Origin: an uncultured Holophagales bacterium
Lineage (GTDB): Bacteria; Acidobacteriota; Thermoanaerobaculia; Multivoradales; UBA5704
DNA: 64,000 nucleotides
Assembly (NCBI GenBank): GCA_963842525.1
Contig: CAWJGT010000034.1
Coordinates: 640,001 to 704,000 of the forward strand
Direction of reading: 5' to 3'
A program made the translations under genes and the position numbers. Under the pieces are notes generated by a model. It did not search any database. It was not told the origin of the DNA and saw only the letters and a list, made by a program, of their open reading frames with translations. This document shows positions 1,899-54,443 of this stretch, piece after piece. Within the stretch, counting starts at the first letter, position 1; each line of letters starts with the position of its first letter.

Positions 1899-3344
1899 CT
1901 ATCCGCTCGGCTCGAAGAATGCGTGAAACCCTAGGTGCAGCGGCGAATCCAGGCGCAGGGTGGCCCGCGGGCCGGAGGCGAGGTCGAAGGCGTCGAAGAC
2001 CAGGAAGGCGCTCTCGTTCCGGCGGGGATCGAACGACTGGCAGATCACCGCGCCCCCCTCCCCCGCAGGGTCCGGCGCGAAGGCGGGCTCGCCGCCCAGG
2101 TAGATGCCCGGCGGCGCCTGCCAGATGTCCCAACCGCCCGACCAGGAGACGGAGACGACCTGGTCGAAAAACTTGCGCCCGTTGCGGCCGGTCGCCGAGA
2201 TCCCCAGCATCCAGAGGTTCTGGTAGGGGCGACCGAAATGTCGCGGATCGATGGCCGGGAAATCCGGGGCCGAGCGGTAGGCCAGCTCGCGGCGGTCCAC
2301 CACCTCTCCAGCTTGGAGGTCGATGACGAACCGGACCGGGCCTCCGGGGCCAACCGTTATGAAGAGGTCCGGGAGGGTTTCGTACTGATCGTAGATCGGC
2401 CGCTCCAGCTCGACGACGTCCACCACCAGCCGGCCGTCTTCCTCGAAGACATTGATTGTATGGAGGACGTGCCCCTGCCCCACTGGCACGGTGGCGACGA
2501 GCTCGCCGGTCTCGCGCGAGGCGATCAGGAGATAGCTCCCCTGCTCGGGCTCCCAGCGCAGCGACTCCATGAGGGTCCGCCCGTCCCGCGCCAGCGCGGC
2601 CATGTTCAGATAGAGCGGCGAGGCGTGCACCACGATGTGCCGCGGTCCGAGGGCGAAGTCGTGAATGGACGACGGCCCCGCGAGGTCGAGCCGGCGGCGC
2701 CAGACGAGCCGGCCCTCAGGATCGAACCGGTAGAGGTTCACCATGGGGTGCTCGCTGGCGTAGGAGACCCCGAAGTTGAACAGCTCTCCGGTGTGCGGGT
2801 CGATCTTGGGATGGGCAGCGAACGGAGCGATCGGATTGAGGCCGCCGCCAAAATTGAAGGTACCGCGCGTCTCCAGCGTCACCGGGTCGAGCTCGTACGG
2901 GAGCCCCTGCTCGCCCAGGGCCAGCAGCCTGCCGCCGAAGGGATAGACGCTCACGTTGACCGGCGACTCCAGGGCCACGCCGCGCACCAGCCGGTCGCCC
3001 TCGAACCGCGTTCCGAAAGTGCGAAAGAGCGCCCGTCCGGCCTCCTCCTCGGCGGTCCATTTGGAGCTGCGCACGAAGCGGGTGGTGAGGTGCGCACCGC
3101 TATCGTCAAAGCGCAGGGCGCAGACCATGCCGTCGCCGTCCAGCCAGTGGCGATAGCGCAGGCCGCCTCTCTCGAAACGGGCGGGTCCGTTGAGGTAGTA
3201 GGTGCCGCGCACGAAGGCGGGGACCTCGCCTTCGACAGGCACCGGACACGAGCGCTCCGCGGGCACGAAGGCGAAGGCCCGTTCCAATCCCGGAGCGAGG
3301 TCCTCCGCCGGAGGTGCTGCAGGGAGACGCTCGGACACGATCAC
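1899..3344 (-). CDS. Carotenoid cleavage oxygenase family (RPE65/lignostilbene dioxygenase-like)
   Basis: GTYYLNGP and HWLDGDGMV motifs plus four candidate Fe-ligand His (FAAHPK, SIHDF, VLHTIN, GFHA). A GTG start at 3344 overlaps the upstream stop (GTGA). Confidence 0.9.
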   Translation of the reverse strand: MIVSERLPAAPPAEDLAPGLERAFAFVPAERSCPVPVEGEVPAFVRGTYYLNGPARFERGGLRYRHWLDGDGMVCALRFDDSGAHLTTRFVRSSKWTAEEEAGRALFRTFGTRFEGDRLVRGVALESPVNVSVYPFGGRLLALGEQGLPYELDPVTLETRGTFNFGGGLNPIAPFAAHPKIDPHTGELFNFGVSYASEHPMVNLYRFDPEGRLVWRRRLDLAGPSSIHDFALGPRHIVVHASPLYLNMAALARDGRTLMESLRWEPEQGSYLLIASRETGELVATVPVGQGHVLHTINVFEEDGRLVVDVVELERPIYDQYETLPDLFITVGPGGPVRFVIDLQAGEVVDRRELAYRSAPDFPAIDPRHFGRPYQNLWMLGISATGRNGRKFFDQVVSVSWSGGWDIWQAPPGIYLGGEPAFAPDPAGEGGAVICQSFDPRRNESAFLVFDAFDLASGPRATLRLDSPLHLGFHAFFEPSG

Positions 3345-5116
3345 CGGTGGCCTCCTCCGGCCATGGCCTGCACGGTCTCTTCCATCGCGGCGGTACCGCG
3401 GAAGCGGTCGGGCGACATCGGCTCGAAATTCCACTTCCAGGTCCGCTTGGTTTCCCGGCAGGCGGCCATCTGCTCGCGCATGGCCTCGGGATCAAAGGAC
3501 AGGTTTTCCAGGTCGATCGCACCCACGAAGTCGGGATGGGTCAGAGTCCTCGGGTCCTCCAGCACGTTTGCGGCCACGTGAGCATAGATCCAGCGCGCCA
3601 TCTCTTCCAGATTGGTGAGCTGCTGGTCGAGGAGCTGTTTGGCCTCGTCGGCCGAGACGCCGACGCGGTAGAAAAGCTCTCCCGCCTTGCCCAGGGCCCA
3701 GGCCTCGTAGAACTCGAAGAGGACGGGCTCCGGCGGCAGCTCGGTCCGGTTCACCTTCTTCCAGCGGTAGTAGTCGCGCAGGAATTCGTGCAGCTTGCGG
3801 TTGATCGGCCCCAGGCGCGAGAAGCGCCGCAGGAAACCTGGGAGGAATGCGCGGTCGGTGAACAGGTCGTTGATGAATGGGAAGACGAAGAAGCCGAAGT
3901 AGATGGCGAGCTCCCAGACATAGCGCAGCGAGTAGGCCTCCTGGTCGCCCAGGATTTCGTAGCTGATCGCGAAGCTGGGTATGTACGACTCGTAGACCGC
4001 CCGCTCCACGCCTTCGTAGAGGCGGACTTTCTGCTCCAGCTCGCGGCGGTCGCGGGTGAGGATCGCGTCCGTGACCAGCGTGTTGTAGCTGGAGATCAGA
4101 TCGCCGCCCGGGCTGTAGAGCGGATCGGTGAAGCGGCCGGCCTCCCCCACCATGGCCCAGCCGTCGGCCGAAATGGTTTGCGCGCAGTCATGGGCGAAGC
4201 TGTCGAACCCGCCCTTGCCGACGATCGTGCGGTGCGGCAGGTCACGGGCAAACATCGGGTACCGCTTGCAGACCCAGTCGATGCACTGGGCGGGCGTGCG
4301 CACCTCATTGCGGTTGATGAGGTCGGCGTCATAGACCAGGCCGAGGCTGGTGCGGCCGTGCAACGGGATCACCCAGAACCAATACCCTTCGCCGCAAAAG
4401 TGATTGGTTGCGAGCAGGGCCGGCACATGGCCGAGAGCCGCGCGGTCGGGGCGCAGGCGGATCTCGCGCGGCGACAGGTCGGTGAGCCGCTCGATATCGA
4501 CGAGGCCGTCGACCCAGAAGAAGGACGTCCCGTGATGGATCGGGCTCTGCCGCAGCAGGCCGAGCTTCTTGGCCAGGATGCGGCTGCGCCCCGAGGCATC
4601 GACGACCCAGCGCGTGCTGCCGGAGACCTCGCCCGCCTCGCTGCGGAAACGGAAGGTGTGGCGCTCGCCGCCCTTGCCGAGGTCGATCTCCAGGTCGCGG
4701 GCCGGCGCATGGAATTCGAAATTCGGGCTCTGGCGGTTGAGCCGCAGAACCTCGGCTTCGATCTTGTTACGATCGAGCTGATAGGTGACGATGTTGGACA
4801 GGCCGCGGATATAGGACTTGCTGACGTCCTCGTAGCGGTCGCTTCCGAGGCCGCTCGGCCAATAGAAGCGGAGGTTGTACTTCATATAGTGCTCGCAGAG
4901 CAGGTGCTCTTCGAGGTCCAGGACGCGCGCGTAGTAGTAGCCGCTCATCTGGACGGTCGCCTCCCCCACTTTCTGTTCCCTGCGGGGGACATCCGCCCGG
5001 CGGTCGATCATCACGATGCGCAGATCCGGATCGGCGAGCAGGAGTTGGCGGCCGAGGCAGCCCCCGGCGAGGCCCGCGCCCACGATCAGGACGTCACAGT
5101 CGACGTTTCTCTCCAT
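3341..5116 (-). CDS. Flavin-dependent halogenase-like FAD oxidoreductase (about 591 aa)
   Basis: Start MERNVDCDVLIVGAGLAG (GxGxxG), KVGEAT, HYMKYNLRFYW (candidate catalytic Lys), WFWVIPL (WxWxIP) and VGEAGRFTDPLYSPG. Confidence 0.75.
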   Translation of the reverse strand: MERNVDCDVLIVGAGLAGGCLGRQLLLADPDLRIVMIDRRADVPRREQKVGEATVQMSGYYYARVLDLEEHLLCEHYMKYNLRFYWPSGLGSDRYEDVSKSYIRGLSNIVTYQLDRNKIEAEVLRLNRQSPNFEFHAPARDLEIDLGKGGERHTFRFRSEAGEVSGSTRWVVDASGRSRILAKKLGLLRQSPIHHGTSFFWVDGLVDIERLTDLSPREIRLRPDRAALGHVPALLATNHFCGEGYWFWVIPLHGRTSLGLVYDADLINRNEVRTPAQCIDWVCKRYPMFARDLPHRTIVGKGGFDSFAHDCAQTISADGWAMVGEAGRFTDPLYSPGGDLISSYNTLVTDAILTRDRRELEQKVRLYEGVERAVYESYIPSFAISYEILGDQEAYSLRYVWELAIYFGFFVFPFINDLFTDRAFLPGFLRRFSRLGPINRKLHEFLRDYYRWKKVNRTELPPEPVLFEFYEAWALGKAGELFYRVGVSADEAKQLLDQQLTNLEEMARWIYAHVAANVLEDPRTLTHPDFVGAIDLENLSFDPEAMREQMAACRETKRTWKWNFEPMSPDRFRGTAAMEETVQAMAGGGHR

Positions 5117-6654
5117 GACTTCTCCACATGCGCCGCCTCCCCGGTGGGAGCGCCGCCTCCTTGAAGGATCGTCTGGGCCACCTGTTGGGCCGAGACGATC
5201 ACGGGGGTGATGCCCCCGCCAGGCCGCGTCCAATGCCCGACGAGGTACAGGTTGGCCAAGGGGCTCATCAGCTCGGGACGCCCGTCGCCGAGCTGCTCGG
5301 GCGACATCTCCCAGCCGAGCATGGCTCCGCGCTGGTTCAGCGTGAAACGCCAGGACGTGTGCGCCGAAGCGCTGGTGCTCACCACGATCCGCTCGGTGAT
5401 CCCGGGGATCATCCGTTCGAGATTGGTGTAGACGAAGCTCTCCGTCTGCCGCTTGTGCTCCGTCCAGTCGGCAACGGCGTCGTAGTCGATGTCCATCACT
5501 TTCTGGACGATCAGGATCTGCCGGCCGGGCGGCGCCATCTCCGGCTCGTAGAGGGTCGGCACGAAGATCTTGAAGCGCAGGGCGTCGCGGCCGACCCGGT
5601 CCATGTCCCAGCCGTCCCAGTAGTAGCCCTGGGCCTCCTCCAGAACGTCGGCAGGCACCCCCTCGAGGCCCAGATGGGTGAGCCAGCACGGGAAGGTGGG
5701 CCGCAGGCGGCGCAGCTCTTCGATCCTCTCGCGCCCGAGATGCCCGGCACCGATCAGCTCCTCGAAGGTCAGCCGCAGGTCGGCGTTCGAGACCACCACG
5801 CCGGAGCGCACCCGCAGCCTCTGGCCGCGGTGCGGGAGCGAGCCGCGGAGGGTCTCGATCTCAACTCCCACCGCCCGGCCATCCTCGACCAGGATGCGGT
5901 GTGCCCGCGTGCTGATCAGCAGGTGCCCCCCGCGTTCCTCGAAGCAGCGGGCCAGGTCGTCGGCGAACGCCTGCGAGCCTCCCTGGGGATAGTAGTTGCC
6001 GAGGAAGTAGGACAACCGCAGCATGGAATCGAAGACGAACGAGGTGCGGCCCGGCGGCGAGCCCCAGTGCGCGCAGTCGGCGGTGAGGAGCAGCTTGAGC
6101 TTGGGATCGCGGAACCAGCGGTCGAGGGCCTGGCGGACAGTGAGGTCGACGTACGGCCGCAGGCGCTCGAGCTGGTTCAGGGGCCGGCCGCGGAAGTAAT
6201 GGAGCAGGCCCAGGAGGTAGCACTCGCGGACCGCGGCGAAGAACGAGTCGAGGGCCGCGGCCTCGTCCGGGAACTCGGCCTTGACCTTGACCAGGTAGTC
6301 GTCGAGATCGGCCGGCACGGCGAAACGCGAGCCGTCCGGGAAGTGGAAGGTGTCCACCGGGTCCATCTTGACCCAGCCGGTGGTGACGCCGATTTCGGCG
6401 AGGAGCCGGCCGGTCAGGGTGTCCGGGTTGCCCAGCAGCGGATAGAAATGGGTCGCGGCGTCGAAGGTGTAGCCGCCGCGGCGGAAGGTGCTGCAATAGC
6501 CGCCCACCATGTAGTGCTGCTCCACCAGCAGGACCCGGAGGCCCCGGCGCGCCAGCAGGTTGGCGGTGATGAGGCCGCCGATGCCGGCACCGATCACGAC
6601 CGCGTCGTAGGTCGGATCGGGCGAGCGGCGCAATCCGCGGAAGGGCCTCTTCAC
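5086..6654 (-). CDS. Phytoene desaturase/CrtISO/retinol-saturase family FAD oxidoreductase
   Basis: YDAVVIGAGIGGL, GGYCSTFRRGGYTFD, YPQGGSQA and C-terminal LYLVGHWTRPGGGI. Confidence 0.85.
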   Translation of the reverse strand: MKRPFRGLRRSPDPTYDAVVIGAGIGGLITANLLARRGLRVLLVEQHYMVGGYCSTFRRGGYTFDAATHFYPLLGNPDTLTGRLLAEIGVTTGWVKMDPVDTFHFPDGSRFAVPADLDDYLVKVKAEFPDEAAALDSFFAAVRECYLLGLLHYFRGRPLNQLERLRPYVDLTVRQALDRWFRDPKLKLLLTADCAHWGSPPGRTSFVFDSMLRLSYFLGNYYPQGGSQAFADDLARCFEERGGHLLISTRAHRILVEDGRAVGVEIETLRGSLPHRGQRLRVRSGVVVSNADLRLTFEELIGAGHLGRERIEELRRLRPTFPCWLTHLGLEGVPADVLEEAQGYYWDGWDMDRVGRDALRFKIFVPTLYEPEMAPPGRQILIVQKVMDIDYDAVADWTEHKRQTESFVYTNLERMIPGITERIVVSTSASAHTSWRFTLNQRGAMLGWEMSPEQLGDGRPELMSPLANLYLVGHWTRPGGGITPVIVSAQQVAQTILQGGGAPTGEAAHVEKSWRETSTVTS

Positions 6655-8339
6655 GCGGCCTTCCTCCCGTCCTCGGCCGCCTCGTCCGCAAAGACCGAGC
6701 CGCGGAAGATCGAGCGGCGCCGGCGCAGCATCTCCTGGATCGCCTCCTCCATCCGGCCCCGCACCTCGTGGCTGATCTCGTGCACAGTAGCTGGATCATC
6801 CGCCGCTTCGGGCGGGAAGCGGAGCTGGACCGGGATCGGCTCCAGGAACCGTGTATGCCATTTCGAGGGGAGCGGCAGGCCGGGCAGCGGGAAGGTCGGC
6901 GTGATCGGCAGGAACGGCCACTCGGCCACCCGCCGGACCAGCTTCGAATCGACGCGCGCCAGGATCGGGTAGATCTCGGCGCTCCCCACGGTGACGAAGG
7001 GCACGATGGGAGCGCGGTTGCGCAGGGCCATCTTCACGTACTCGTCGCGGCCGAACTTGCCGAGCCGGTAGGCGTCCCGGTACATGGTGAAGGCGCCCTG
7101 GATCCCTTCCGGGAACATGCCCAGCATCCCTTCGCGGGCGAGCACCCAGTCGGCGTTCTCCTGGCAGGCCACGATGCCGCCGAGCTTGATCATGTAGTTG
7201 GCCAGGAACGGGAACTTGACCAGGCAGGGATGGATCAGGAAGCGCGGGATGCGGCCGGTCTCGCGCCGCAGCAGGTGAACGGCCATGACCCCGTCCCACG
7301 GCATGAAGCCACGGTGGACGCCCGTCAGCACCACCCGGCCCTGGCGCGGCACGTTCTCGATCCCGCGGTGCTCGATCCGCCAGTAGGCGTCGTGGAGGAA
7401 GCGGAAGAGGGTGCGCGACCAGGCGGCGATGTACTTCTCGTCCAGGCCGTAGTCGTCGAAGGTGGGGGCCGCGACCGGGGGTCCGTCCTTCTGTCCGAAC
7501 GCCTCCAGGACGGCCTCGGCGCTGGTCTTCGCGGGGACGAAGCCGAGCTCGCGCTCGATCTTGCGGCCCGAGACGGTCCAGGAGTGGCGCAGGTATTCGA
7601 GCTGCGCACCGGCCCAGCGCGGGCCGGCGAGACGCCGTGTCCCGGCGAGGCGCAGGGCGCCGCGGACCGTGACGGTCCCGGCCGGCGCCACGTGGTAGAC
7701 GCCCGGCTTCCCCGCTCCGCGTTCCACGGCGCAGGCCACGGCCGAGTCGAGATCGCCGGGGGCGAGGAGCTGCAGGGACGGATCGAAGCCGGCCGGCACG
7801 AACGCGGTCCGCCCGCGCAGCAGGCGCGAGAAGAAATTCTCGCCGTCGCGCGTCACGACCGGTGCCGGGCGGAGGATCAGGAGCTCCGCACCCAGCCCGG
7901 CACACCGCGACTCCGCCAGGGTCTCCAGCTCGCGCCAGGCGCGGGCGATCGGATTCTCTCCCCGCGGCTTCTGCGTCTCGGGCAGATAGCCCTGGTTGTG
8001 ATGGCTCGGGTCGTGGACCAGCGAGCTCGACAGCAGGACGACCCTGGGGGCCTGGAGAGACGCGAAGACAGCCGCGGCGTCGGCGAGGTCCGGCCGCATG
8101 CCGTCCTTGATGAGAGGCGGTCGGTAGAGGAAGACCTCACCCCCTGGCCCCCTCTCCCATCTCCCACCCGCCCGGCCCCGGGAGAGGGGGGACGCAGTTG
8201 GTGCACCTGAGGCGAGGTCGGAGCCCAGCGGCTCGAAATCTTCTGACATCGGACTCGCCGCGGAATTCCCAGCTACGTCCCCCCTCTCCCGGCGGGGGGT
8301 GGAAGGGAGATGGGAGAGGGGGACAGGGGGTGAGGTCAT
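6651..8339 (-). CDS. Degenerate NAD-epimerase/SDR-like domain fused to a PlsC-type lysophospholipid acyltransferase; REP-derived N-terminus
   Basis: The C-terminal half has GIENVP, HxxxxxD-like HRGFMPWD and FPEG. The N-terminal half has SDR-like VVLLSS and LILRPAPV but no clear GxxGxxG. RBS GAGGAGG precedes ATG 8339. Confidence 0.8.
   Translation of the reverse strand: MTSPPVPLSHLPSTPRRERGDVAGNSAASPMSEDFEPLGSDLASGAPTASPLSRGRAGGRWERGPGGEVFLYRPPLIKDGMRPDLADAAAVFASLQAPRVVLLSSSLVHDPSHHNQGYLPETQKPRGENPIARAWRELETLAESRCAGLGAELLILRPAPVVTRDGENFFSRLLRGRTAFVPAGFDPSLQLLAPGDLDSAVACAVERGAGKPGVYHVAPAGTVTVRGALRLAGTRRLAGPRWAGAQLEYLRHSWTVSGRKIERELGFVPAKTSAEAVLEAFGQKDGPPVAAPTFDDYGLDEKYIAAWSRTLFRFLHDAYWRIEHRGIENVPRQGRVVLTGVHRGFMPWDGVMAVHLLRRETGRIPRFLIHPCLVKFPFLANYMIKLGGIVACQENADWVLAREGMLGMFPEGIQGAFTMYRDAYRLGKFGRDEYVKMALRNRAPIVPFVTVGSAEIYPILARVDSKLVRRVAEWPFLPITPTFPLPGLPLPSKWHTRFLEPIPVQLRFPPEAADDPATVHEISHEVRGRMEEAIQEMLRRRRSIFRGSVFADEAAEDGRKAA
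8133..8337. repeat. CCTCACCCCC-family palindromic element pair inside a coding sequence (arms about 8133-8201 and 8269-8337)
   Basis: gacctcaccccctggccccctctcccatctccc...gggagaggggggacg is matched in inverted orientation by 8276-8337. Confidence 0.8.
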
Positions 8340-8352: not shown

Positions 8353-9570
8353 TCAGTCCACCGGACGGTTGCGGCCGTAGGTCTCGTGGGCGTCGACGAA
8401 TTCGCCGCTGGCGATGGCGCCCGCCATGGACAACTCGCCGGCGAGGAGCGTGGCGGCGGCGATCTCTGCCAAGCGCGGCGCGCCGCCCGGGCCCGCGCAG
8501 CCGAGCATCTCCAGGCACTCGCGCGCCGTGCCCAGGCCGGTGCCGCCGCCGACCGTGGCCACCGTGAGCGCCGGCAGGGTGACGCTGGCGTAGAGGTCCC
8601 CTTCCGGCGTGGCCTCGAAACAGGTGATCCCCACGGCCGAGTTGGCGACGTTGGCCACGTCCTGGCCGCAGGCGATGAAAAGGGCGGTCAAGCCGTTGGC
8701 GAAGTGGCCGTTGTAGCCGAGCGTGCCCCCCTGGAGATGGCCGAGCACGGTGTGGCGCCAGAGGTCGGCCATCTCCTGCGGCGTGGTGTGCAGGTAGGCG
8801 CGCACCACCCGCGCCGGCAGGCGCGCTCCCGCAATCACCTTCTTTCCCTTGCCGCCGGCAAAGAGCGAGCCGCTGGCCCGCTTCTCCGATTCGAGGCCGC
8901 TGAAGATGTAGTGGCGCCGGGCCCGGGTGTTGGCGAGCAGCCAGCGGCAGGCCTTGTCGGTGGCCTTGACGATCATGTTCATGCCGTGGGCGTCGCCGGT
9001 CGAATAGACGAAATGGACCATCACCTCGCGGCCCACCGGCTGCGGCTCGATGCGGAGCAGCCGGCCGTGGCGGGTGGTGGACTCGGCCTCGGTGCGCAGC
9101 GACTCGAAGCGGGCCGGCAGCTCGCGGGCGAAATCGGCCGCCTCGGCGATGCTGTCGAGCACGAACACGGGGGTGACGCGGTTCTCGTCGGCGAGCAGCC
9201 GCACCTGGGCGCCGCCCGAGCGGGTGAGGGCCACCATGCCGCGCTCGTAGGAGCGCACGAGCGCCCCTTCGGTGGTGGCCAGGGGGACGTAGACCTCGCC
9301 GCGCGCGTGCTCGCCGTCGATCTTCAGCGGGCCGGCCAGGCCGAGCGGCACCTGGACGGCGCCGATCGGGTTTTCGATGTTTCCCTGCATCGACTCGCCG
9401 GGCAGCGTGCAGGCGCCCACGTGCCGGAGGCCGGCGCCGGTCCGCTCCTCGATCCAGCGTCGCCGGGCCGCGATGTCGTCGTCGCCATAGCCCTGGCCAT
9501 CCAGGCGCGGCACCAGGTCGTGGGTCCGTTCGGGCGCCGCCGGCTCGGCGGCCTCTGGGGGCCGGCGCAC
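8353..9570 (-). CDS. Class I HMG-CoA reductase-like protein (divergent)
   Basis: ENPIG, PLATTEGALVRS, TGDAHGMNM, GYNGHFAN, CGQDVA, TVGGGT, LAGELS and C-terminal His (DAH). Probable GTG start at 9570 after GGAGG. Confidence 0.88.
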   Translation of the reverse strand: MRRPPEAAEPAAPERTHDLVPRLDGQGYGDDDIAARRRWIEERTGAGLRHVGACTLPGESMQGNIENPIGAVQVPLGLAGPLKIDGEHARGEVYVPLATTEGALVRSYERGMVALTRSGGAQVRLLADENRVTPVFVLDSIAEAADFARELPARFESLRTEAESTTRHGRLLRIEPQPVGREVMVHFVYSTGDAHGMNMIVKATDKACRWLLANTRARRHYIFSGLESEKRASGSLFAGGKGKKVIAGARLPARVVRAYLHTTPQEMADLWRHTVLGHLQGGTLGYNGHFANGLTALFIACGQDVANVANSAVGITCFEATPEGDLYASVTLPALTVATVGGGTGLGTARECLEMLGCAGPGGAPRLAEIAAATLLAGELSMAGAIASGEFVDAHETYGRNRPVD

Positions 9571-9575
9571 TCCGC

Positions 9576-10826
9576 TCAGCCTCCTTCCTGGAGGGATTCC
9601 AGAGTCGACTCCAGAGTCGATTCCAAAATAAGCGCACAGCACTGGCCGTCCGCGGCGGCGGCATGGAGCAGGCCGAGGCGCGGCCTGCGGTGGAGCCGCC
9701 GCGTCTCTGCGGCAACACCGGCCAGCGGGAACCCTTCCTCGGGCGTCTCCAGGCCGAGGACGCCCGGCAGGGCGCCGTCGCCAAAGGTGCCGAGCAGGGC
9801 GACGGCCTGGAGGGCTCCCGAGGCGCCCGGCGCCTCGCCCAGCATGGCCTTGACGGCGGTGGCCGGACGCGCCGCGGCGCGGTCGCCGAGGGCGGCGGCC
9901 ACGCCGCGCGCCTCGCAGCGGTCACCCAGGACGCTGCCGTTCGCGGAGAGACTCAGGACGTCGAGGTCTTCCGCCGCGACCGCCGCGTCCTCCAGGGCGA
10001 GCCGGACCGCGCCGGCAACGGCCTCGGCGCGCTCCTCTTCGTCGCCGCCGGAGGCATCGAAGCCCATGCCGTGGCCCCGCACTTCGGCGAGCACCCGGGC
10101 ACCGCGCGCGGTCGCGGCCTCGGCGTCCTCCAGCATCAGGACGGCCGCGCCCTCGGCCAGCGCGAACCCGTCGCGCCGGGCGTCGAACGGCACCGGCACC
10201 CCGCCGAGCCGGCCGGCGCGCTGGAAGCCGAGGAACGATTCAAAACAAAGCTCCTCGGCGCCGCCGGCGAGCACGGCATCGGCCCGGCCGCTGCGGATCA
10301 GCTCCGCGGCATAGGCGAGGGCCATCAGCCCCGAGGCCTCGCCGCCCGCCACGGTGGAGTTGACGCCGCGCAGGCCGTGCCAGATCGCCGCCTGCCCGGC
10401 CGCGGCGTTGATGACGCTGTTGGCGAAGTCCATGGGGCTGGCGTAGGAGGGGCCGAGCTGCACGGCCCGGCGGTCGAACTCGGCGATCGTCCGCACGCTG
10501 CAGAACATCGTGCCGAGCACCAGGCCCACTTCCCTCTCGGCCCGCATTTCGGCGGTCCAGCCGCTGCTTTCGAGCGCCCGTTGGACAGCCACCAGCAGAA
10601 GCCGGGCCGTGCGGTCCACGGGCCGCAGGTTGCGGTCGCCCAGGTAGGCCTGGGGATCGAACGGCCGGACCTCTCCCCCGAGCCGCGGGCCCAGGCCGTC
10701 GAGCGCGAACAGCTCGATCGGCTTCAAGGCGCTCTGCTGCGCGCAGAGCGCGGCGTGCAGGCCTTCCGGCGTGTCGCCGAGCGGCGACAGGACCCCGGCC
10801 CCGGTGACGACGACGCGGCGGCTCAT
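9576..10826 (-). CDS. Beta-ketoacyl synthase homologue lacking catalytic residues (chain-length-factor-like)
   Basis: KAS fold motifs (RVVVTGAG, FDARRDGFALAEGA). The Cys position reads GGEASG, and the two His positions read SANGS and GEAPG. Confidence 0.85.
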   Translation of the reverse strand: MSRRVVVTGAGVLSPLGDTPEGLHAALCAQQSALKPIELFALDGLGPRLGGEVRPFDPQAYLGDRNLRPVDRTARLLLVAVQRALESSGWTAEMRAEREVGLVLGTMFCSVRTIAEFDRRAVQLGPSYASPMDFANSVINAAAGQAAIWHGLRGVNSTVAGGEASGLMALAYAAELIRSGRADAVLAGGAEELCFESFLGFQRAGRLGGVPVPFDARRDGFALAEGAAVLMLEDAEAATARGARVLAEVRGHGMGFDASGGDEEERAEAVAGAVRLALEDAAVAAEDLDVLSLSANGSVLGDRCEARGVAAALGDRAAARPATAVKAMLGEAPGASGALQAVALLGTFGDGALPGVLGLETPEEGFPLAGVAAETRRLHRRPRLGLLHAAAADGQCCALILESTLESTLESLQEGG

Positions 10827-12038
10827 GCAGCCTCGCTCCGCCGGAAGATCACCGAGGCGTTATTGCCGCCGAAGGCGTAGGCGTTGTTCATCGCCACCCG
10901 CACGTCATGCTCGCGGGCCGCGTTGGGGACGTAGTCGAGGTCCTCCTCGGGCTCCTCGAGGTTCATGGTCGGCGGGATGCGGCCGGTCGCGACCGCCAGC
11001 GAGCAGACGAACGCCTCGATGGCCGAGGCGGCTCCCATGGTGTGGCCGATCATCGACTTGACCGAGCTCATCGGCGTGCGGCAGCCGGAGCCGAAGACGC
11101 GGAGCACCGCCACGGTCTCCAGGCGGTCGTTGGTCGGCGTGCCCGTGCCATGGGCGCTGATGTAGTCGACGTCCGTGGGAGCCAGCCCGGCGTCGGACAG
11201 CGCGCGCTGCATGGCCCGCGCCGCACCGTCGCCCTCGGGGTGGGCCGCGGTCATGTGATGGGCGTCGCAGGAGAGGCCGTAGCCGGCCACCTCTGCATAG
11301 ACGCGGGCGCCGCGGGCCCGTGCCCGGTCGAGCGGCTCCAGGACCAGGACGCCCGCTCCTTCGCCCGGGATCATGCCTTTGCGGTTGCGGTCGAACGGCT
11401 GGCAGGTCTCGGGCGCGATGGCGCCGAGGCGGGCGAAACCGGCGTAGGTGATGCGCGAAAAAGCGTCGGCGCCGCCGGCGAGCATCACGTCCGCCCGTCC
11501 CGAGCGCAGCACGTCCAGGGCGTGGGCAATGGCGTAGTTGCCTGCCGCGCAGGCGGTCGGGATCATGGTGTTGACGCCGCCGAAACCGAGCTCCCGCGCC
11601 ACGTGCGCGGCAATCATGTGGCATGGATAGAGGCCGATGAACTCGCCGCCCACCTGATCGATCTCGCCGGCAAGGAAGCGGTCGTTGAAGCGCTCGACCT
11701 CGCGCGGCTCGCCCGAGGTCGTGCCCATGGCCACCCCCGCCCGCCGGGGGTTCAGTCTCTCCACGCCGAGGCCGGCGTCCTCCACGGCCTGCCGGGCGGC
11801 GGCGATGGCGAGCTGCGAGGCGCGGCCGAGCCGGTCCGGGTCGAGCCGGCGTACCGAGGGGCGCGGATCGAAGCCGCGCACCTCGGCGCCGAGGTGGACG
11901 CTGAACTTGGCGGTGTTCGAACGACTCGACCGGCGCGAAACCGCTCTTGCCGGCGAGAAGGTTCGCCCACGCCTCCTCACGCCCTGCGCCGACCGGAGTC
12001 ACGACGCCGAGGCCGGTCACGGCCACCCGGACCGTCAT
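10823..12038 (-). CDS. FabF-type beta-ketoacyl-ACP synthase (active KS); frameshift near 11920
   Basis: The N-terminus MTVRVAVTGLG is in one frame and the rest is in ORF 10823..11980. Catalytic TACAAG, HGTGT and GHTMG are all present. Confidence 0.9.
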
Positions 12039-12309
12039 GCCGGGGCGGCTCCCGTTGCGGCGGAGAGCTCGGCCAGGCGGCCCTGGACCAGCGCGACCAT
12101 CTGCGGCAGGCTCTCGATCTCCTTGTAGCGCTCGTCGGGCAGCTCGAGCTTGAAGGCGAGGTCGACGTCGACCCCGATCTCGAGCAGCGACAGGGAATCC
12201 AACCGGAGTCGTCGCGCAGGCTGGCCTCGTCCGGGATCCGCTGTGGATCGAGGCCGGCGATGTTGGAGATGATCTTCTTGATCCGGGCCGTGATCTCGGC
12301 TTTGTCCAT
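12035..12309 (-). CDS. Acyl carrier protein; frameshift near 12207
   Basis: MDKAEITARIKKIISNIAG...SLRDD joins LRLDSLSLLEIGVDVDLAFKLELPDE (Ppant Ser in LDSL). Strong RBS AGGAGG. Confidence 0.88.
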
Positions 12310-12325
12310 TCCATCCTCCTAAACT

Positions 12326-12378
12326 GCGATTCATCTGTAAAAACATCAACCCCAAGACATTGACTACAGGCGATTCAT
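12326..12378. promoter_or_regulatory. 9-bp direct repeat GCGATTCAT x2 in the AT-richer spacer upstream of ACP (possible regulator site)
   Basis: GCGATTCAT at 12326-12334 and 12370-12378, 44 bp apart, in the only sizeable intergenic gap of the locus. Confidence 0.35.
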
Positions 12379-12453
12379 AGCCATCCGGCGTTACATCCCT
12401 CCTCGGCCTCAGAACCGGTAGGTCGACAGGCAAAGGCAGGCGTGGAGGGCCCC

Positions 12454-12941
12454 TCAGCCGATCCGCTCCGGCCATAGGCGCGCGAGGAGGGGGAGGAAGC
12501 TCGGGCCGGGCACGCCGGCGCCCTCTTCCCGCACCTCGGGCGCTACAAGGCCTTCCAGCAGGCTCAGCACGTCCCAGCTCACCCACCCCTCGACGATCTT
12601 GCCGTCCTCGATGCGCAGCACGTCGACGCCCGACGTCGAGGCCTCGCGGCCGGTGGGCGGCAGGCCGAGGAGGTCCCCCGTGTTGCGCCCGCGGGCGCTC
12701 CAGCGCACCACCACCATGTCGGCCTCGGCGATGATCTGCTCGGCGGTGACCCGGACCTCGCTGAAGGCCAGATGGTAGAAAAGCACGAGCTGGCCGAGCG
12801 CCTCCGGGCCGCGCGCGAAGTCGGTCTGGAACGGCACGCGCGCGTGGATCAGGCAGTCGCGGTGCAGGATCTCGTCGGCGATCGACAGGTCGCCGGAGTT
12901 CCACAAGTCTTCGCGGAATCGGCGGGCGATCGCCTTTTGGC

Positions 12942-12945
<4 letters not shown>
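12454..12945 (-). CDS. SnoaL-like ester cyclase (NTF2 fold)
   Basis: MSQKAIARRF...EQIIAEADMVVVRWSARGRNTGDLLGLPPTGR...RIEDGKIVEGW. Confidence 0.85.
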
Positions 12946-14657
<1,712 letters not shown>

Positions 14658-14664
14658 GGGCGGA

Positions 14665-17536
14665 TCAACCTCCGGCGATGGTCGCCTGCTCGGGGCTCTT
14701 GGTCCCGGCGGGCTTCGTGATGCGGTCGAGCGGCACGCTCTCGTGCTCGTGAATCTGCTGCCGCTCATTGTTGTCCTCGGGGCTGACCATCCGGCGCTTG
14801 GCGGTGATGGCCTGCGACGCCTCCTCGGCCTTGAAGCGGCGGAAAAGCTTCTCCGCCCGCTCGGCCTTCTCCGTGTTGCCCAGGGCGCGCCAGCAGAGCA
14901 TGGCCGTGTAGTGCATCTGCACGTCCTCGGGATCGACCAAGCAGACCCGGTCGAGCGCCTGCAGGGCCTCCTTGTACTGGCGCTTCAGGAACAGGACGCG
15001 GGCGATCTGGTTGAGCACCACGCGGTCGCGCGGGTACTTCGCCTCGACCGTGCGCAGCGAGCGGAGGGCCGCGTCGTAGTCGCCCTAGGCCTTCTCGATC
15101 ATGGCCTTGAAGAAGTGGATGCGGCCGAGGCTAGAATCGATCGCCAGCGCCTTCTGGATGTACGGCCGGGCCGCGTCGACCTGGCCCTCGCGGATGAGGG
15201 CGCGGGCCACGTTGAGCCAGCCGTCGGCGTACTTGGGATCGGCCTGGGTGACCCGCTGGAAGGCGTATTCGGCCCCCTTCAGGTCGCCCTGCAGCAGCAG
15301 GCCGATCCCCCAGTCGTTCCAGCGCTCCCAGTCCTCCTTGACGACCACCGGCTTCCACACCGCACCGTCCTCCCCCAGCTCGAGCTTGGCCTCGTCCGTG
15401 GCGAGGACGATGATCGGCAGGTCCGGGATCTCACCCTTGAGCTGGCCCGAGACGTTGGCCGGGACGTTCGCTTTGTCGAACGAGTAGTCGAGGCTGTTGT
15501 GGTGGGCGGAGACGAGCTCCGGCCCCTGCCCCGCCTTCGGCTGGCCGGCATAGGCGAACTGCGTGTAGTAGTGGGCGAACTTGCGGTAGTTGAGCTTCGC
15601 CGTCAGGGTGATCGGCCCGCGGGCGCCCTCCGGGACCTTCATCCGGAAGTGGACCGTGTCGGCCGCGCCGGGCGGGATCAGGCGGGCGTAGAGCGCGCTG
15701 CGCGCCTGCCAGGCGTTCCGCTTGTTGATCGGGTTGCCCTCGGCGTCGAGCGCCAGCGACTGATACCGGTGGGCTCCCGCCTCGACGGGGCCCGACCGCC
15801 CGTTCCCCTCGTCCTCGACCATGCCGCTCCAGTAGACGACCTTGCCGTCCGCGTCGCGCCCCTGGAGCTCCAGCCAGACGTCGAAGGCGTCCACCGTGCC
15901 GCCTGGGAAGAAGTGGCCGATGGCGCGCGTGCGCACGACCACGTCGACGCGCACGGTGGAGCCGGGCGGCAGCTTGAGGCCGGCCCGGTCGATCGGCGCC
16001 GCGACCTGGCCGACCTCCCGGATCACAACGGGTCCTCCCTGCTCGGCCTCCTCGCCCACCGCGAAGGTGGACATGACCTGCGGCCCGGTGCTCGCCGGGG
16101 CTGCCCGCCGCACCATGGCCGTCTCCCGTTCGCTCTCCACCACCGGCGAGACGGCGAAGATGTCGACCGTGATGAAGCCCGACTGGAGGAACTTCTTCGT
16201 GACCTCCATCTGCGTCTCGTCGCGGTTGACGAACGGCAGGGCCGTGTTGGCCGCCGGGAAGCGGTGCGAGTGGACCTTGCCGCCGCGGTTGCCGGGGTCG
16301 TTCGATGCCACCAGCGGCATGTGGCAGCCGGCGCAGGTCTTGGTCTCCGCCGGGTAGTAGAACGAGCGCGCGCCCTGTCCCGAGACGCCGCTCGCCTGCC
16401 AGTTGTCATAGTCGTTGAAGCCGCGGAACCAGCGGTAGGAGTTCACCGGCACGTCGAGGTGCACCTTGTGGCAGGAGGCGCAGAACTCGGCCGAGTCCTG
16501 CCGCATGAACGGCTTCATGAATGTATTCCGGTGCGGCTCCGGGTCGGTGTATGTGAGGAAACGGTCGACCCTCCGGATGAACGGGTTCTTGCTCGTCGCC
16601 AGCTCGTGGAGCGGCGGGTATTCGATCGTGAAGTCGCCGTTGCCCATCGAGCTGCCGACGTGCGTGATGGCATGGCACGAGGTGCAGGCCAGGCCCGCAT
16701 GCGCCTCCGGCGTGTCGATCTGCTCCTTGATCGGCCGCTCGAAACGGCCGTTGAAGAACACCGCGTGGTCGTGGCAGCCGGCGCACCACTTGGTCGGCTC
16801 CGTCCCCACCACGTCCTGCATGTACTCGATCGACTTTCTGTAGAACTGGTTGTTGAACGAGCCGAAATGGTGTGCCGAGCTGTTCCACTGCTCGTAGATG
16901 TCCTTGTGGCACTCGCCGCAGGTCTGCGAATCCATGAAGAAGTTGGACGGGATGATGCCCGCCCACGTTGGTCTTCGCCGAGGAGGGGAAGAACGGCGAC
17001 TGCGGGCCGCCGCCCTCCTCGGACATGGAGGTCGGGACGATCAGCGGGTTCTTGATGCGGTGGCTCGGGTTCGGATTGGCCTTCCGGTAGAGCGCCATGC
17101 CCCCGGGCAGCAGCACCAGCAGGGCCGCGCACGCAACGAAGGCGTTGCGGAGCCGCAGCCAGCCGCCCCCGCGCTCCGCCGCCTTGCGCCAGGCCCACGG
17201 GACGAGGGCCAGGGCCCCGAGACCGGCGGTGGCGATGTGGGTCCAGAGGAGCCACCGGTTCTGGAAGATGTTGCCCGCCCAGGTCAGCCACAGCCCGGCG
17301 AGCAGGGACAGGAGGAAGAGGGCCGCCGCAGGCGCGAGGCCGCGGACCCAATCCTCTCCCCGGTGCCGGACGAGCAGGACCGCCAGGCACACGGCCACGG
17401 CGAGGCCGAGCCCGAGGTGCAGCAGCACATTGGACATGTAGAAAACGGTCGGCGAGGCGAACGCCGCCAGATAGGCGGTGTTCACCAGCAGCACCAGGAA
17501 GAGCGCCGCGGTCCACGTTGCGAGCTTGCTTTTCAT
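14665..17536 (-). CDS. Membrane-anchored multiheme cytochrome c (5 CxxCH) with C-terminal TPRs; frameshift near 16960 and in-frame TAG at 15085-15087
   Basis: About five hydrophobic N-terminal helices (ORF 16406..17536). CGECH, CAGCH, CTSCH, CASCH and CAGCH lie in ORF 15085..16935. TPR helices continue in the same frame past the TAG (A*GDYDAALRS) into ORF 14665..15021. Confidence 0.82.
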
Positions 17537-20500
17537 GGGTTTGGTGCCTCCTCACGCAGAGGGTGCAGGAGCCGGAGGGCGGGCCGGGTGTTGTAGTGCT
17601 CCCGGTAGAGCCTGTGCAGCTCGCCGTCGGGGAAGCTCTCGCCCTCTGGATACGGGTATTGGGACATGCCGTGGAACGGCAGGGGCTCGACGGTCTGGGA
17701 GAAGGCGGTGTTGGCATCGCCGTCCTTGGCCCAGCCGTCCACGAAGAGCAGGAAGTCGCGCCGCCAGCCTTCCGGCAGGGGCGGCAGGGCGCCGGCGTCG
17801 AAGAGCAGGCGGATCTCGTCGCCCGAGCCCATGACGACCAGCCGGTCGTCGATCACGTCGAGCAGCTCCCGGACGTCGCCGTAGCGGGTGTAGAGCCCCG
17901 GCGTCGGGTTCCACATCGAGACCGGCATCCAGCTCTGGTAGTCGAACTGCTCCGGCTGCTTGCGCTCGGGGTGGACGACGGGACGCGAGAAGCCGCGGTA
18001 GCGCAGAGAGGCCGTGGCGGGCGCGAGCCCGGTGAGGACCGCCTCGGGCTCTCCGGTCTCTTCGGCAAGATAGATCTCGTCCCAATAGACGCAGAGGCTG
18101 GTCTCGATCCGCACCTCGCGCGAGGCGGAGAGGAACTTGCCCGTGAGGTCGACGACGATGGTCTTCGGCTTGCCGGCGGGGATGCCCATGTCCTCGATCA
18201 CCGTCTGCCAGCGGCCCTGCGCGTCCTTCACCTGGATGCTCGGGAAGACCAGGCCGGCACTCGATCCGGACACTGACTCCTGCGCCGCGCCGAGGAAGGT
18301 CGAGCCGTCGGCCCAATCCACCCAGCCGGAGAGGACCAGGATCGCCTGGTTGTCCGCCGCCGCGGCTTTCCCGAAATCGAGCTCCACGGCATGCAGCTCG
18401 GCGATCCCGGAGGAGGTCCGCCGGAAGCCGTCCGGGTAGGTGCGGTCGGTCGCCAGCAGGCGCGGCAGCACGTCGCGTCCGCGGTGGTCGCGGGCGCGCA
18501 CCGGATGGATCCGCTTCTCCACCCCGAACAGGCGGAAGTCGGGGAAGGGCGGCGCCTTGAACTTGTCGTTCGTCAGCACTTCGATCCTCTCCGGATGGTC
18601 GACCGCGATCAGGTGGACCTGATCCAGGAAGGCGACCTCGCGCAGCTCCTCGGTGATCCGGATCTCATACCTGCCGGGGTCTGATGCCAGCGGTTTCAGC
18701 GACTCGCCGCGGATCTGCACGATTTCGTCGTGGTCCACCGGAAAATAGGTGCCGTCGCCCGCGCTCGCTCCGAGCGGCGCCACGCCCAGCACATCGGTGA
18801 TGAACTCGAATTCGCGGCCGTTCCACGTGAAGATCATAGGACAAGAGCCGGACAAGCGGGGCGCCTCCTTGTAAGCTCGTGCGCCCGCGGCCTGCCGCGT
18901 CTCGTTCTGGATCAGCCCGTTCGGCCAGGTGATGCGGACCGTGTCGGCCTCCGTGCGGTCGCCCAGCCCGAAGAGGAGCGGCACGCCGCCATAGGTCTTC
19001 TTCTGGTAGCTGGAGCCGGACTTGACCTCCACCTCCGCCCCTGGGGCGAGCTTCAGGTTCTTGACCCCCTCGAGGCTCACGGAGAGCCACCGGCCACCGG
19101 CCGGGGTGGCATTGCGCAGCCGCCGCAGGACGCCGTCCCGGCCCACTGCCGCGAGGTCGGTCCGCCCGTCGCCGTCGAAGTCCGCGGCGGCGAGGGAGGT
19201 GGCCGGGAACCCCGTTCCGTCCACGTTCACGAGGCCGCTCGCGCCGCGGTTGTCGAGGTCGGCGAAGACCAGAGGGCCCGTGGCGGTCAGGCCGGCTCCC
19301 TTCTCCAGCCTTCCCCGCAGGCTCCGTCCGTTGCGGAGCAGGCCATCGGACACCACGAGGTCGGTCCAGCCGTCCTGGTCGGCGTCGAACGCGGCGAGGG
19401 TCCTCTCCCCCGCCGGCAGGAGGTCGAGCGGCTCGGCCTCGTACAGCCCGCCGAGGCGGTCGCGGTAGAGGACGCCGGTACGGTCCGCATAGGCCACGGC
19501 CAGGTCCATCCCCTGGGTGTCGGCGACCAGGTTGAACACCACTCCGGCGACCGCGCGGCCGGGCACGAAGGGGAAGCGGGCCGTCTCGTCGCTCCAGCCG
19601 GCAGGACCCTGATTGCGGACCAGGGCGGGCTTGTCCCCGAGCAGGACCAGGTCGGCGTCGTAGTCGTGGTCGTAGTCGAGCCAGAGGGCCTGGCGGAAGC
19701 TCCCGGCCGGCAGGGTCGCAGCGACCTTCTCGAACCGCCCTTTCGCGTTCCGGTAGAGGGTCAGGCCCGGAGCCAGGACGGCGAGGTCGGCGAGGCCGTC
19801 GTTGTCGAAATCGCCGGGCTCGATGGCCGTGACGCCGCGCAGCTCTTCGAGGCCGGTCGTCGCGACGCGAGAGGTGCCGTCCTTGAACAGCAGGGCGCCC
19901 TTGCTGGACCAGGCGAGGAGGTCCGGACGGCCGTCACTGTCCGCGTCCAGCACCGCCAGGCCCGCGGTCGCCGGATCGAGGCCGGTGGCGAGCTCGGTAG
20001 GGTCGAGCTTCAAGGATGCCGGCAGAATACCGGAGCCAAGGGCGCTCCCAGCGGCGGGTTCAACTTCGTCGAGGATCTCCGAGAACCAGCTCCACTCCAG
20101 GTCCTCGGGCACGGCCGCGCCCTCCTGGCTCGCCTTGATCTGCTTGAAGGTGTCGAGCTCGCGCTGGGCCTCCTCGGTCCGGCCGGCCTGGCGGTAGGCG
20201 TTGTAGAGCTGGAAATGGGGCCCGGCGAGGCGCGGCCCGAGGCGCATGGCCTCCTCGAAGTGCTTCAGGGAGAGGTCGGGCTTGCCGGTCAGCTTGTAAA
20301 GCGTGCCCAGGTTGTAGTGCGAGACCGGCTCGTCAGGGACGAGCTGCACCATTTTCTCGAGCTGGGCGATGGCCTTGTCGTACTGCGACTCCCGCTTGTA
20401 GACGATCCCCAGGTTGAACCAGGTGTGGGGGATCTGCGGCGCCTGCTCCTGGACCTTCGCGAGCTCGGCCACCCCCTCGGCCGCCTTGCCGGCCTTGAGC

Positions 20501-27642: not shown

Positions 27643-27788
27643 GGTAAATCGACTTTTAACGAGAGCTGAGCCACTCTAGAACAAGCCTCTGCTCAGGAAA
27701 ACCGGCATCGGGGACCAAAAAGGGTCTAAACCCCTTGGCGTCCACGCCACAGGGTACGATACGACCCGCTTCCGAGAGGAGGACTGCA

Positions 27789-54300: not shown

Positions 54301-54443
54301 GAGAAGAAGGTGATGCACTCCACGCCGTCCCGCAGGTTGCGCCAGAAAGCTTCCGCGTCCGGCGATCCCGGGAAGCGGCAGGACAGGCCGATGATCGCGA
54401 TGTCCGTCTCCCGGAAGCGCTCGTCCGGCTCACGCTCAGCCAT
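39371..54443 (-). CDS. Hybrid PKS-NRPS: KS-AT-KR-ACP-(C-A-T)x3-TE; frameshifts near 47555, 46445 and 42969
   Basis: Start MAEREPDERF at 54443. KS TACSTS/HGTGT/GHLD, AT GHSIG and HAFH, KR GGLGGIG/YVAAN, ACP GGDSL. C domains HHIAGDD, HHIVSDG x2; three A domains (YTSG.TG.PKG, YGPTE); T GGHSL x3; TE GASFG. Confidence 0.9.

Follow-up and report, generated by a model that had tools for sequence, protein, structure and literature searches.

Gene Organization at the Locus

The present work concerns a stretch of DNA of 64,000 nucleotides (hereinafter, the window) from an uncultured Holophagales bacterium of the phylum Acidobacteriota (assembly GCA_963842525.1, contig CAWJGT010000034.1), and in particular one of its genes, which codes for a homolog of class I 3-hydroxy-3-methylglutaryl-CoA (HMG-CoA) reductase (HMGR) and whose product is predicted to reduce a different acyl thioester. 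The G+C content of the window ranges between 63 and 74%; third-position GC and the listing of the open reading frames (ORFs) showed that the genes between about 12.9 and 1.9 kb form a co-directional run on the minus strand, in which the following features were recognized:

8353..9570, minus strand: predicted acyl-thioester reductase of the HMGR fold, 405 residues, intact (PF00368, TIGR00533, residue mapping, and a clade of its own)
9576..10826, minus strand: chain-length-factor (CLF)-like inactive ketosynthase partner, 416 residues, with ketosynthase N- and C-terminal domains; best solved match 9s5h, chain C
10823..12038, minus strand: FabF-like ketosynthase (KS), Cys-His-His motifs read by eye; best solved match 9s5h, chain B
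12035..12309, minus strand: acyl carrier protein (ACP), its frame split just before the DSL motif by an apparent 1-nt deletion near 12209
12454..12930, minus strand: SnoaL-like small protein (PF07366, 103.9 bits), upstream of the ACP gene
6651..8339, minus strand: two-domain acyltransferase, with an epimerase/short-chain dehydrogenase/reductase (SDR)-like N-terminal part and a PlsC/GNPAT-like part (PF01553, PF03982)
5086..6654, minus strand: flavoenzyme of the CrtI/phytoene-desaturase family (FADox); TIGR02734, 169.3 bits, below the cut-off of 238.1; related structures 4dgk and 4rep
3341..5116, minus strand: flavin-dependent halogenase-like protein (FADhal), matching CndH (3e1t), ChlB4, CmlS, and PltA
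1899..3434, minus strand: carotenoid/lignostilbene-type cleavage dioxygenase of the RPE65 family (PF03055, 337.5 bits)

The minus-strand ORF of the HMGR homolog spans 8353..9642, and the database gene call (P0005, 8353..9570) yields the identical 405-residue product. The gene starts 5 bp past the stop of the CLF-like gene, which in turn shares 4 bp with the KS gene; its position directly after the KS/CLF pair, pointed out in the original prediction (made from the sequence alone), was thus confirmed. The CLF-like protein lacks the catalytic triad, having a Glu at the position of the active-site Cys and another at that of the second His. Domain scans of the operon genes did not retrieve any ketoreductase, dehydratase, enoyl reductase, thioesterase, or acyl-CoA ligase.

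Regarding the other genes of the run, the clusters of the acyltransferase in the Atlas come from Acidobacteriota (with PF01370 on 11% of one cluster), and this gene is present in many related loci. The halogenase-like protein harbors the motifs WFWVIP and KVGE, presumably the halogenase motifs known by these names, and in many loci its gene is followed by that of the dioxygenase. The SnoaL-like gene was found in a few related loci only (L006, L012, L013, and L029).

Residues of the HMG Pocket

The match of the 405-residue protein with the Pfam profile HMG-CoA_red (PF00368) is far above chance (365.7 bits, E 3.3e-109, positions 2-368 of 368), with only about 30 residues ahead of the catalytic domain. 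Its nearest relative of solved structure is the class I HMGR of Methanothermococcus (6hr7, E 3.8e-90), and the comparison with the human HMGR gave an E of 2e-58. The score for TIGR00533, the NCBIfam equivalog of the NADPH-dependent HMGR, was 330.9 bits, which is below the cut-off of 441.8.

The residues were mapped through alignments with the human (2q1l) and the archaeal (6hr7) enzymes, counting the human numbering from what we take to be its landmarks, that is, E559, D690-K692, D767, and H866. All four catalytic residues are present, i.e., E559 (in TTEG), K691 (in SEKR), D767 (in GQD), and the C-terminal H866. The segments binding the HMG moiety are altered: DGMTRGP becomes DENRVTP, with a Val at position 590 and an Arg one position before; CTDKK becomes (E)SEKR, i.e., D690E and K692R; NKNLVGS becomes RHTVLGH, i.e., K735H; DAMGMN becomes DAHGMN; and L862 is replaced by a Phe. 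In the HMMER alignment with 6hr7, a one-residue gap puts the Arg of RHT opposite the equivalent of K735; because of this gapped Arg and of that at position 589, the positive charges of the pocket appear to be rearranged and not simply removed. Both the retention of the catalytic Glu/Lys/Asp/His and the alteration of the HMG-binding segments had been proposed, from an alignment by eye, in the original prediction, and both held in the alignments with the solved enzymes, according to which the residues of the HMG pocket are changed and not conserved.

A scan of species genomes yielded an ortholog set of 82 copies from 77 loci, sharing 65-84% identity. E559, K691, N755, and D767 are kept in all 82 copies and H866 in 79 (two of the others are truncated and one has an Arg), and S684 is kept in 81. 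Position 590 is occupied by V, I, or L and position 690 by E in each of the 82 copies; none of them has a Lys at position 735, the replacements being mostly His, Arg, Thr, or Gln. Moreover, M655 is changed to His or Gln within the clade, and L862 is a Phe in 26 out of 27 clade rows of the tree described below (a Met in the remaining one). Further changes fall in the helix around human positions 564-571, which we take to be the CoA-binding helix of the human enzyme: A564R and N567E are specific to the clade and present in 83 rows out of 83; S565 and R568 are retained in all 83 as well. Lastly, K722 is a His in 75 of the 83 clade rows, a change found also in six out of seven relatives fused to adenylation/carrier domains.

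Paralogs and the Mevalonate Pathway

HMGR homologs with a different substrate are known. The excerpts of Grossi et al. (2025, ISME J, PMC11948995) describe FcrA from Natronomonas pharaonis and Ca. Promineifilum breve as a class I HMGR homolog that carries out the NADPH-dependent reduction of acyl-CoAs of C14 and longer to alcohols and that, according to the same text, neither reduces HMG-CoA nor is inhibited by simvastatin. FcrA is reported there to keep the four catalytic residues, to have a bulky residue at L862 in all its members, a Glu at S684, a generally small residue at the position of Lys735 (printed as Lys795), and an elongated pocket; an N-terminal Lad domain occurs in certain FcrA only, and the paper mentions ACP-fused forms and PlsC-like neighbors in some bacteria, and considers that the enzyme may contribute to ether lipids (PMC11948995).

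The 9.95-Mb genome of the window harbors three homologs of class I HMGR, the window copy being the one with the lowest score. The canonical paralog is located on contig 9, between genes coding for a GHMP kinase, a diphosphomevalonate decarboxylase (MVD), and a polyprenyl synthase, and keeps R590, DKK, K735, DAMGMN, and L862. The third paralog is of the FcrA type and is located about 160 kb upstream of the window (locus L004, G000:C34:476500-496499, gene 9078-10583); it has an N-terminal PF25653 domain, a Trp at position 862, a Glu at 684 when read without gap, and a gene for an ABC1 atypical kinase directly after it.

Out of 401 sampled genomes of the phylum, only 13 harbor an ortholog of the window reductase with at least 55% identity (the next-best match has 47%); the module is, therefore, accessory and patchy. 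In eight of these 13 genomes the clade member is the sole class I HMGR homolog. Four genomes of another family (96-99% complete) belong to this kind, and DXR was found in all four and MVD in none. The genome of the window is the reverse of them: the MVD family is present and DXR was unmatched, so that, in comparison with these four genomes, it appears to rely on the mevalonate route. The profile of HMG-CoA synthase (PF01154) matched none of the five genomes, including the mevalonate-using one of the window, and is thus uninformative.

These data bear on the possibility that the window protein is, after all, a true HMGR, either as an isozyme or as the self-resistance copy of a cluster for an HMGR inhibitor. 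Resistant copies of a target within biosynthetic clusters are a known pattern; the fold and the four catalytic residues are intact; and several basic residues remain near the pocket. However, R590, D690, K735, and L862 are changed throughout the clade, orthologs are the only class I HMGR homolog in the four genomes having DXR and lacking MVD, the score falls below the equivalog cut-off of TIGR00533, and FcrA, with its bulky residue at L862, is reported in the excerpted text not to reduce HMG-CoA (PMC11948995). A true HMGR appears, in our opinion, extremely unlikely. The self-resistance copy was considered separately and rejected on account of the changes in the pocket, of the genomes without MVD, and of the score below the cut-off.

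Phylogeny and Fused Relatives

A careful phylogenetic tree was built on 65 rows (LG+C20+F+G4) and rooted on eight canonical sequences; the position of Pb-FcrA in it was assigned on the basis of the domain type, its sequence not being among the rows. Canonical and non-canonical sequences were split with a support of 100/99. The window reductase belongs to a clade (100/100) placed inside a group of 29 rows lacking R590 (96/95), the paralog with the N-terminal domain (FcrA type) falls in a separate clade (98/98), and the forms fused to adenylation/carrier domains or to kinases make up a third one (95/92).

According to domain scans, the relatives P0142 and P0229 are fusions of AMP-binding, PP-binding, and HMGR domains; other fused relatives have C-terminal APH/EcKL kinase domains, and one is a PilZ fusion. 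The APH/EcKL domains of many relatives, together with the ABC1 kinase genes that follow the FcrA-type paralog and, in many orthologous operons, the acyltransferase gene, suggest a recurrent link between reductases and kinases. In addition, among the representatives at 50% identity, P0130-P0160 comprise a large group of HMGR homologs without R590 having N-terminal extensions of 130-370 residues, for which no Pfam match was obtained except for PilZ in P0132.

On the whole, the window reductase is most likely not a mevalonate-forming enzyme but a member of the FcrA-like, non-canonical superclade of class I HMGRs, acting as an NAD(P)H-dependent acyl-thioester reductase. The suggestion of the original prediction that the enzyme works on an acyl thioester other than HMG-CoA is thus supported, at the level of sequence, by the changes in the pocket, the canonical paralog elsewhere in the genome, the FcrA superclade, the fusions with adenylation and carrier domains, and the synteny. 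Since FcrA was published in 2025, the idea of HMGR homologs working as acyl-thioester reductases is not new; the new part would be a clade that stands apart, is linked to an ACP, and has pocket and docking residues of its own, all within a conserved operon. Moreover, since the name of every listed source of the clade is "hydroxymethylglutaryl-CoA reductase", pathway reconstructions for soil Acidobacteria will wrongly infer a mevalonate capacity.

Conservation of the Gene Order

The 77 loci belong to Thermoanaerobaculia, Holophagales, Blastocatellia/Pyrinomonadaceae, Vicinamibacteria, Ca. Angelobacter, bins of Solibacter/Bryobacteraceae, and a few bins labeled otherwise. Their ORFs were grouped by single-linkage clustering, leaving out one component in which HMGR, FG-GAP, and FADox ORFs had been lumped together. 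The order ACP-KS-CLF-HMGR-CrtI-like flavoenzyme-acyltransferase recurs across the Acidobacteriota. For 66 copies the upstream flank measures at least 2.7 kb, and in 49 of them the reductase gene is immediately preceded by the KS and CLF genes in the same orientation. The most constant neighbor is the CrtI-like gene: of the 74 copies whose downstream flank is long enough, 59 have it within 600 bp past the reductase; a FADox, FADhal, or acyltransferase gene directly follows in 64 of the same 74. In related loci, a gene for a LuxR-type response regulator often precedes that of the ACP, and a gene for an ABC1 kinase often follows that of the acyltransferase. The RPE65 gene is missing from many loci that keep KS-CLF-HMGR-FADox-acyltransferase. 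A search of the accessible literature on the combination of KS/CLF and HMGR, and on work following that on FcrA, retrieved no paper describing this operon.

The four genomes with the methylerythritol phosphate (MEP) pathway mentioned above, i.e., those with DXR, show the arrangement reductase-flavoenzyme-(TetR)-acyltransferase-ABC1 kinase. As no match to KS/CLF was found in their 18-kb loci, the constant core would consist of the reductase, the flavoenzyme, and the acyltransferase, the dedicated ACP-KS-CLF being frequent and not obligatory.

Five loci of Thermoanaerobaculia (L045, L047, L049, L060, and L028) harbor two KS-CLF-reductase sets side by side. In the genomes with two sets, one is KS-CLF-reductase-halogenase-dioxygenase and the other KS-CLF-reductase-flavoenzyme-acyltransferase, the window having a merged version of them; the two copies of the reductase are sister clades, which points to a lineage-specific duplication.

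As for the surroundings, the operon is flanked in the window, at 12942-22767 and at 23480-27675 (minus strand), by several large proteins with FG-GAP/ASPIC(UnbV) repeats, some of them with TPR, among which there is also a multihaem cytochrome-c554-like/TPR protein; FG-GAP/ASPIC genes (about 30% identity) lie between the flavoenzyme and the acyltransferase in loci of the Blastocatellia type. A separate hybrid nonribosomal peptide synthetase (NRPS)-polyketide synthase (PKS) locus occupies positions 39371-58733 (minus strand), with an ORF of 3739 residues harboring adenylation (A), condensation (C), KS, acyltransferase, ketoreductase, and carrier domains; it also encodes a C-A-T-TE protein, and the short A_C-T-C piece at 46316-47593 seems to be split off, possibly by an assembly frameshift.

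The KS/CLF Pair and the Integrity of the Reading Frames

When compared with all the solved structures, the KS has its best match in chain B of 9s5h (424.9 bits, the next being 321.4 for the Iga11-type 6kxd), and the CLF-like protein in chain C of the same entry (217.2 bits, the next being 180.6). Chain C has a Val at the position of the Cys and a Glu at that of the second His, and the same two residues are described for amxFabFmut in the excerpts of Granatino et al. (2026, bioRxiv 10.64898/2026.05.19.726425). We infer that 9s5h and 9s5i represent the anammox heterodimer amxFabF2/amxFabFmut, the excerpted preprint text carrying no PDB code. The window pair follows the amxFabF2/amxFabFmut pattern, with one Cys-His-His partner, one triad-less partner, and adjacent genes, and would form a heterodimer. 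The anammox heterodimer is reported, in the same excerpts, to decarboxylate malonyl-ACP and to favor C6-C8 over C16 probes (bioRxiv 10.64898/2026.05.19.726425). By analogy, there is a hint, and no more than that, of a short or medium chain as the substrate passed on to the reductase, in keeping with a pocket lacking an obvious elongation.

The ACP and KS frames of the window are each broken by a single-base indel, the two lying within 300 bp of each other and both in short homopolymers: a C is missing in the ACP gene (about 12209), and an extra A in the KS gene (11916) puts its first 40 or so codons in another frame. This might mean that the module is decaying in the strain of the window, the ACP and KS genes being pseudogenes and the intact reductase a functionless remnant. 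In favor of such a decay one can cite the two frameshifts themselves, as well as the contigs of soil relatives (90-99% similar, from three runs and other strains), which span position 11916 without the extra base and leave 12204-12400 uncovered. On the other side, indels in short homopolymers are typical of errors in long-read assembly, the other seven genes are open with a strong third-position GC signal, and a similar splitting seems to affect NRPS genes in another part of the window, which fits an assembly error. Related loci carry intact ACP and KS frames; the intact ACP orthologs are 40 ORFs over 38 loci, and the copy of locus L006 matches PP-binding. We consider the decay of the module very unlikely and the two frame breaks probable errors of the assembly.

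Modeled Docking of the Acyl Carrier Protein

The acyl-ACP substrate entertained in the original prediction found support in structural modeling. The complex of an HMGR dimer with the ACP, both from locus L006 and each chain with its ortholog alignment, was modeled together with three controls; the score was 0.72 for the complex and 0.01 for the best control. The mark used for this score is reached by 58 out of 80 solved complexes and by 2 out of 110 mismatched pairs, a calibration that is rough for a three-chain job with our own alignments. The runs share at least 61% of the contacts, with a pLDDT of the partner of at least 87.

In the model, Asp38-Ser39-Leu40 of the ACP contacts residues 100, 103, 104, and 107 (human 564, 567, 568, and 571) and 248-253 (human 715-720) of one subunit; from the second subunit, the invariant N-terminal motif LVPR...QGY faces the same stretch of the ACP. 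The predicted interface includes the clade-specific Arg100 (L006 numbering), and the docked site is what we take to be the entry of the CoA pantetheine in HMGR. We know of no solved HMGR-ACP complex, and a recall of such a structure by the modeling program is therefore unlikely. The model thus supports the binding of the ACP to the reductase at the CoA surface.

Proposed Role of the Reductase and Alternative Explanations

From homology, residue pattern, paralogy, synteny, and phylogeny, we infer a scheme for the release of the chain from the ACP that covers the direction of the reaction, the number of electrons transferred (four or two), the carrier (ACP or CoA), the type of chain, and the product. 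This ACP-dependent reductive release is the reading that we consider rather probable. According to it:

i. The ACP of the operon would carry a chain of the fatty-acid type, which the KS/CLF heterodimer encoded next to it would start or elongate, the reduction cycles being presumably borrowed from the housekeeping type II fatty acid synthase because the operon encodes no ketoreductase, dehydratase, or enoyl reductase.

ii. The ACP would dock on the surface of the HMGR fold that binds CoA, and the Glu/Lys/Asp/His machinery would convert the thioester to a hemithioacetal, an aldehyde, and a primary alcohol, or stop at the aldehyde, thereby releasing the chain.

iii. The CrtI-like flavoenzyme and the SDR-like/PlsC-like acyltransferase would modify the product and build it into a lipid; in the genome of the window, the halogenase-like and cleavage-dioxygenase genes would also take part.

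Several points weigh against this scheme, in which the role of the clade is a prediction from sequence. The KS/CLF genes are not directly upstream in 17 of the 66 copies with sufficient flank (two of them, L013 and L052, being artefacts of the overlap rule used in the scoring), and no KS/CLF match was found in the 18-kb loci of the four MEP-pathway genomes. FcrA, the closest characterized relative, uses acyl-CoA and not acyl-ACP. The pocket is not plainly hydrophobic: 78 of 82 copies have an Arg at position 589, R, H, Q, or K occurs at 692, and a basic residue is mostly present at 734/735; the acyl group may still be polar or anionic, or a register shift may restore an Arg. Furthermore, position 735 is not small as in FcrA, and S684 is kept. 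The docking score expresses the confidence of the model, for a pairing whose controls included neither a canonical HMGR nor a housekeeping ACP. Finally, if the frameshifts in the ACP and KS genes are genuine, the strain of the window may have lost the function of the module.

An alternative would be an FcrA-like fatty acyl-CoA reductase, working on free acyl-CoA and delivering the alcohol to the neighboring acyltransferase for wax-ester-like or ether lipids, with KS, CLF, and ACP only feeding the pool. FcrA acts on acyl-CoA and, in some bacteria, its genes adjoin PlsC-like genes, according to the excerpts (PMC11948995); the four genomes with HMGR-FADox-acyltransferase-ABC1 show no KS/CLF match in the fetched loci; and the CoA-binding helix retains R568 and S565 in all the rows. 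However, neither a thioesterase nor an acyl-CoA ligase that could shift the chain from ACP to CoA is encoded in the operon, the gap of 5 bp after the CLF gene points to a tight coupling, K722 is changed to His and A564R and N567E are specific to the clade, and in the model (roughly calibrated) the ACP itself occupies the CoA site. An enzyme of free acyl-CoA is, on balance, rather unlikely.

The reaction might also be an oxidative acylation, like that of HMGR when mevalonate is catabolized, turning an aldehyde or alcohol (e.g., the product of the dioxygenase) into the ACP or CoA thioester that primes KS/CLF. The chemistry of HMGR is reversible, no starter-loading enzyme (ketoacyl-ACP synthase III, acyl-ACP ligase, or MCAT-type acyltransferase) was seen in the operon, and the aldehyde-making dioxygenase of the RPE65 type is encoded in the same operon here. 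Against this, many loci with KS-CLF-HMGR-FADox-acyltransferase do not have the RPE65 gene, and in the adenylation/carrier/HMGR fusions only the reductive direction makes sense because the adenylation domain already makes the thioester. Moreover, FcrA works reductively (PMC11948995, excerpts), and the closest solved relative of the KS/CLF pair primes itself by decarboxylating malonyl-ACP (bioRxiv 10.64898/2026.05.19.726425, excerpts). Such an oxidative role seems very improbable.

If the reductive release from ACP is correct, the HMGR fold accepting ACP would extend the 2025 discovery of FcrA from CoA to carrier-protein chemistry and offer a new catalyst of reductive release for the engineering of fatty alcohols. 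More than one class of Acidobacteriota conserves the operon, and no known pair is closer to the anammox ladderane pair than its KS/CLF; for these reasons, a tractable acidobacterial or heterologous system could make the questions on both the operon and the ladderane pair testable. More tentatively, and in a reading that we hold to be somewhat less likely than not, the clade might be the first HMGR-fold enzyme to take its substrate from ACP, and thus a third, structurally unrelated solution to reductive release beside the SDR-type R domains and FAR; the whole module, with ACP and KS/CLF of the ladderane type, reductase, flavoenzyme, SDR/PlsC acyltransferase, and in many cases a kinase of the ABC1 family, might then make undescribed alcohol-derived lipids (e.g., ether-linked, desaturated, or halogenated) in the Acidobacteriota, and could also point to the way in which anammox bacteria come by their ladderane alcohols.

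Comparison with Known Systems

The canonical class I HMGRs (human 1dq8/2q1l and Methanothermococcus 6hr7) align with the window protein over the full length of the catalytic domain, with the same catalytic residues and with a Thr-Arg at the 2'-phosphate site, which suggests NADPH, this pair presumably setting the preference for that cofactor. Unlike them, the window enzyme has changed residues in the HMG and statin pocket, shows no linkage with mevalonate genes, and occurs in genomes with DXR and without MVD.

With FcrA, as described in the excerpted paper, the window clade shares the HMGR fold, Glu559/Lys691/Asp767/His866, a bulky aromatic residue in place of Leu862, and the loss of Lys735, as well as the non-canonical superclade, the co-occurrence with a canonical HMGR in a mevalonate-using genome, and the PlsC-like neighbors. 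It differs in being a separate subclade within a group also lacking Arg590, in having no N-terminal Lad/PF25653 domain in the window protein, in keeping Ser684 (Glu in FcrA) and having His, Arg, or Thr instead of a small residue at position 735, and in the clade-specific D690E, A564R, and N567E; moreover, the window gene sits behind ACP-KS-CLF, so that the carrier is probably ACP and not CoA. The protein appears to be FcrA-like in a broad sense; as two pocket traits of FcrA do not seem to be shared and the Lad domain is lacking, we regard it as a variant of its own and not as an FcrA proper.

The anammox Cluster I comprises, in the excerpts of the preprint (bioRxiv 10.64898/2026.05.19.726425), amxACP, amxFabZ, amxFabF2, amxFabFmut, a phytoene-dehydrogenase homolog, and a B12 radical-SAM protein. 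Like the window operon, it combines a flavoenzyme of the CrtI family with an ACP of its own, one active KS, and a KS partner devoid of the triad, the two flavoenzymes being likened by family only; unlike it, the window operon has no FabZ or radical-SAM gene and has an HMGR-fold reductase and an acyltransferase.

The myxobacterial ether-lipid enzymes ElbD and MXAN_1675 combine, according to the excerpts of PMC9131029, a FAR-like reductase, an ACP, and an AGPAT/GNPAT-like acyltransferase. The likeness is one of domain logic, i.e., the conversion of an activated acyl group to an alcohol beside a PlsC/GNPAT-like acyltransferase, which in the window also has an SDR/epimerase-like N-terminal part; unlike the window enzyme, their reductase is an SDR (FAR/TR fold), and no AGPS gene was seen in the window operon.

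Lastly, the carboxylic acid reductases and the R/TR domains of NRPSs and PKSs also release a carrier-bound thioester reductively, as an aldehyde or alcohol, and the fusions P0142 and P0229, with the order A-T-HMGR, parallel their A-T-R arrangement. Unlike the window enzyme, R domains have the SDR fold, so that two unrelated folds would perform an analogous job.

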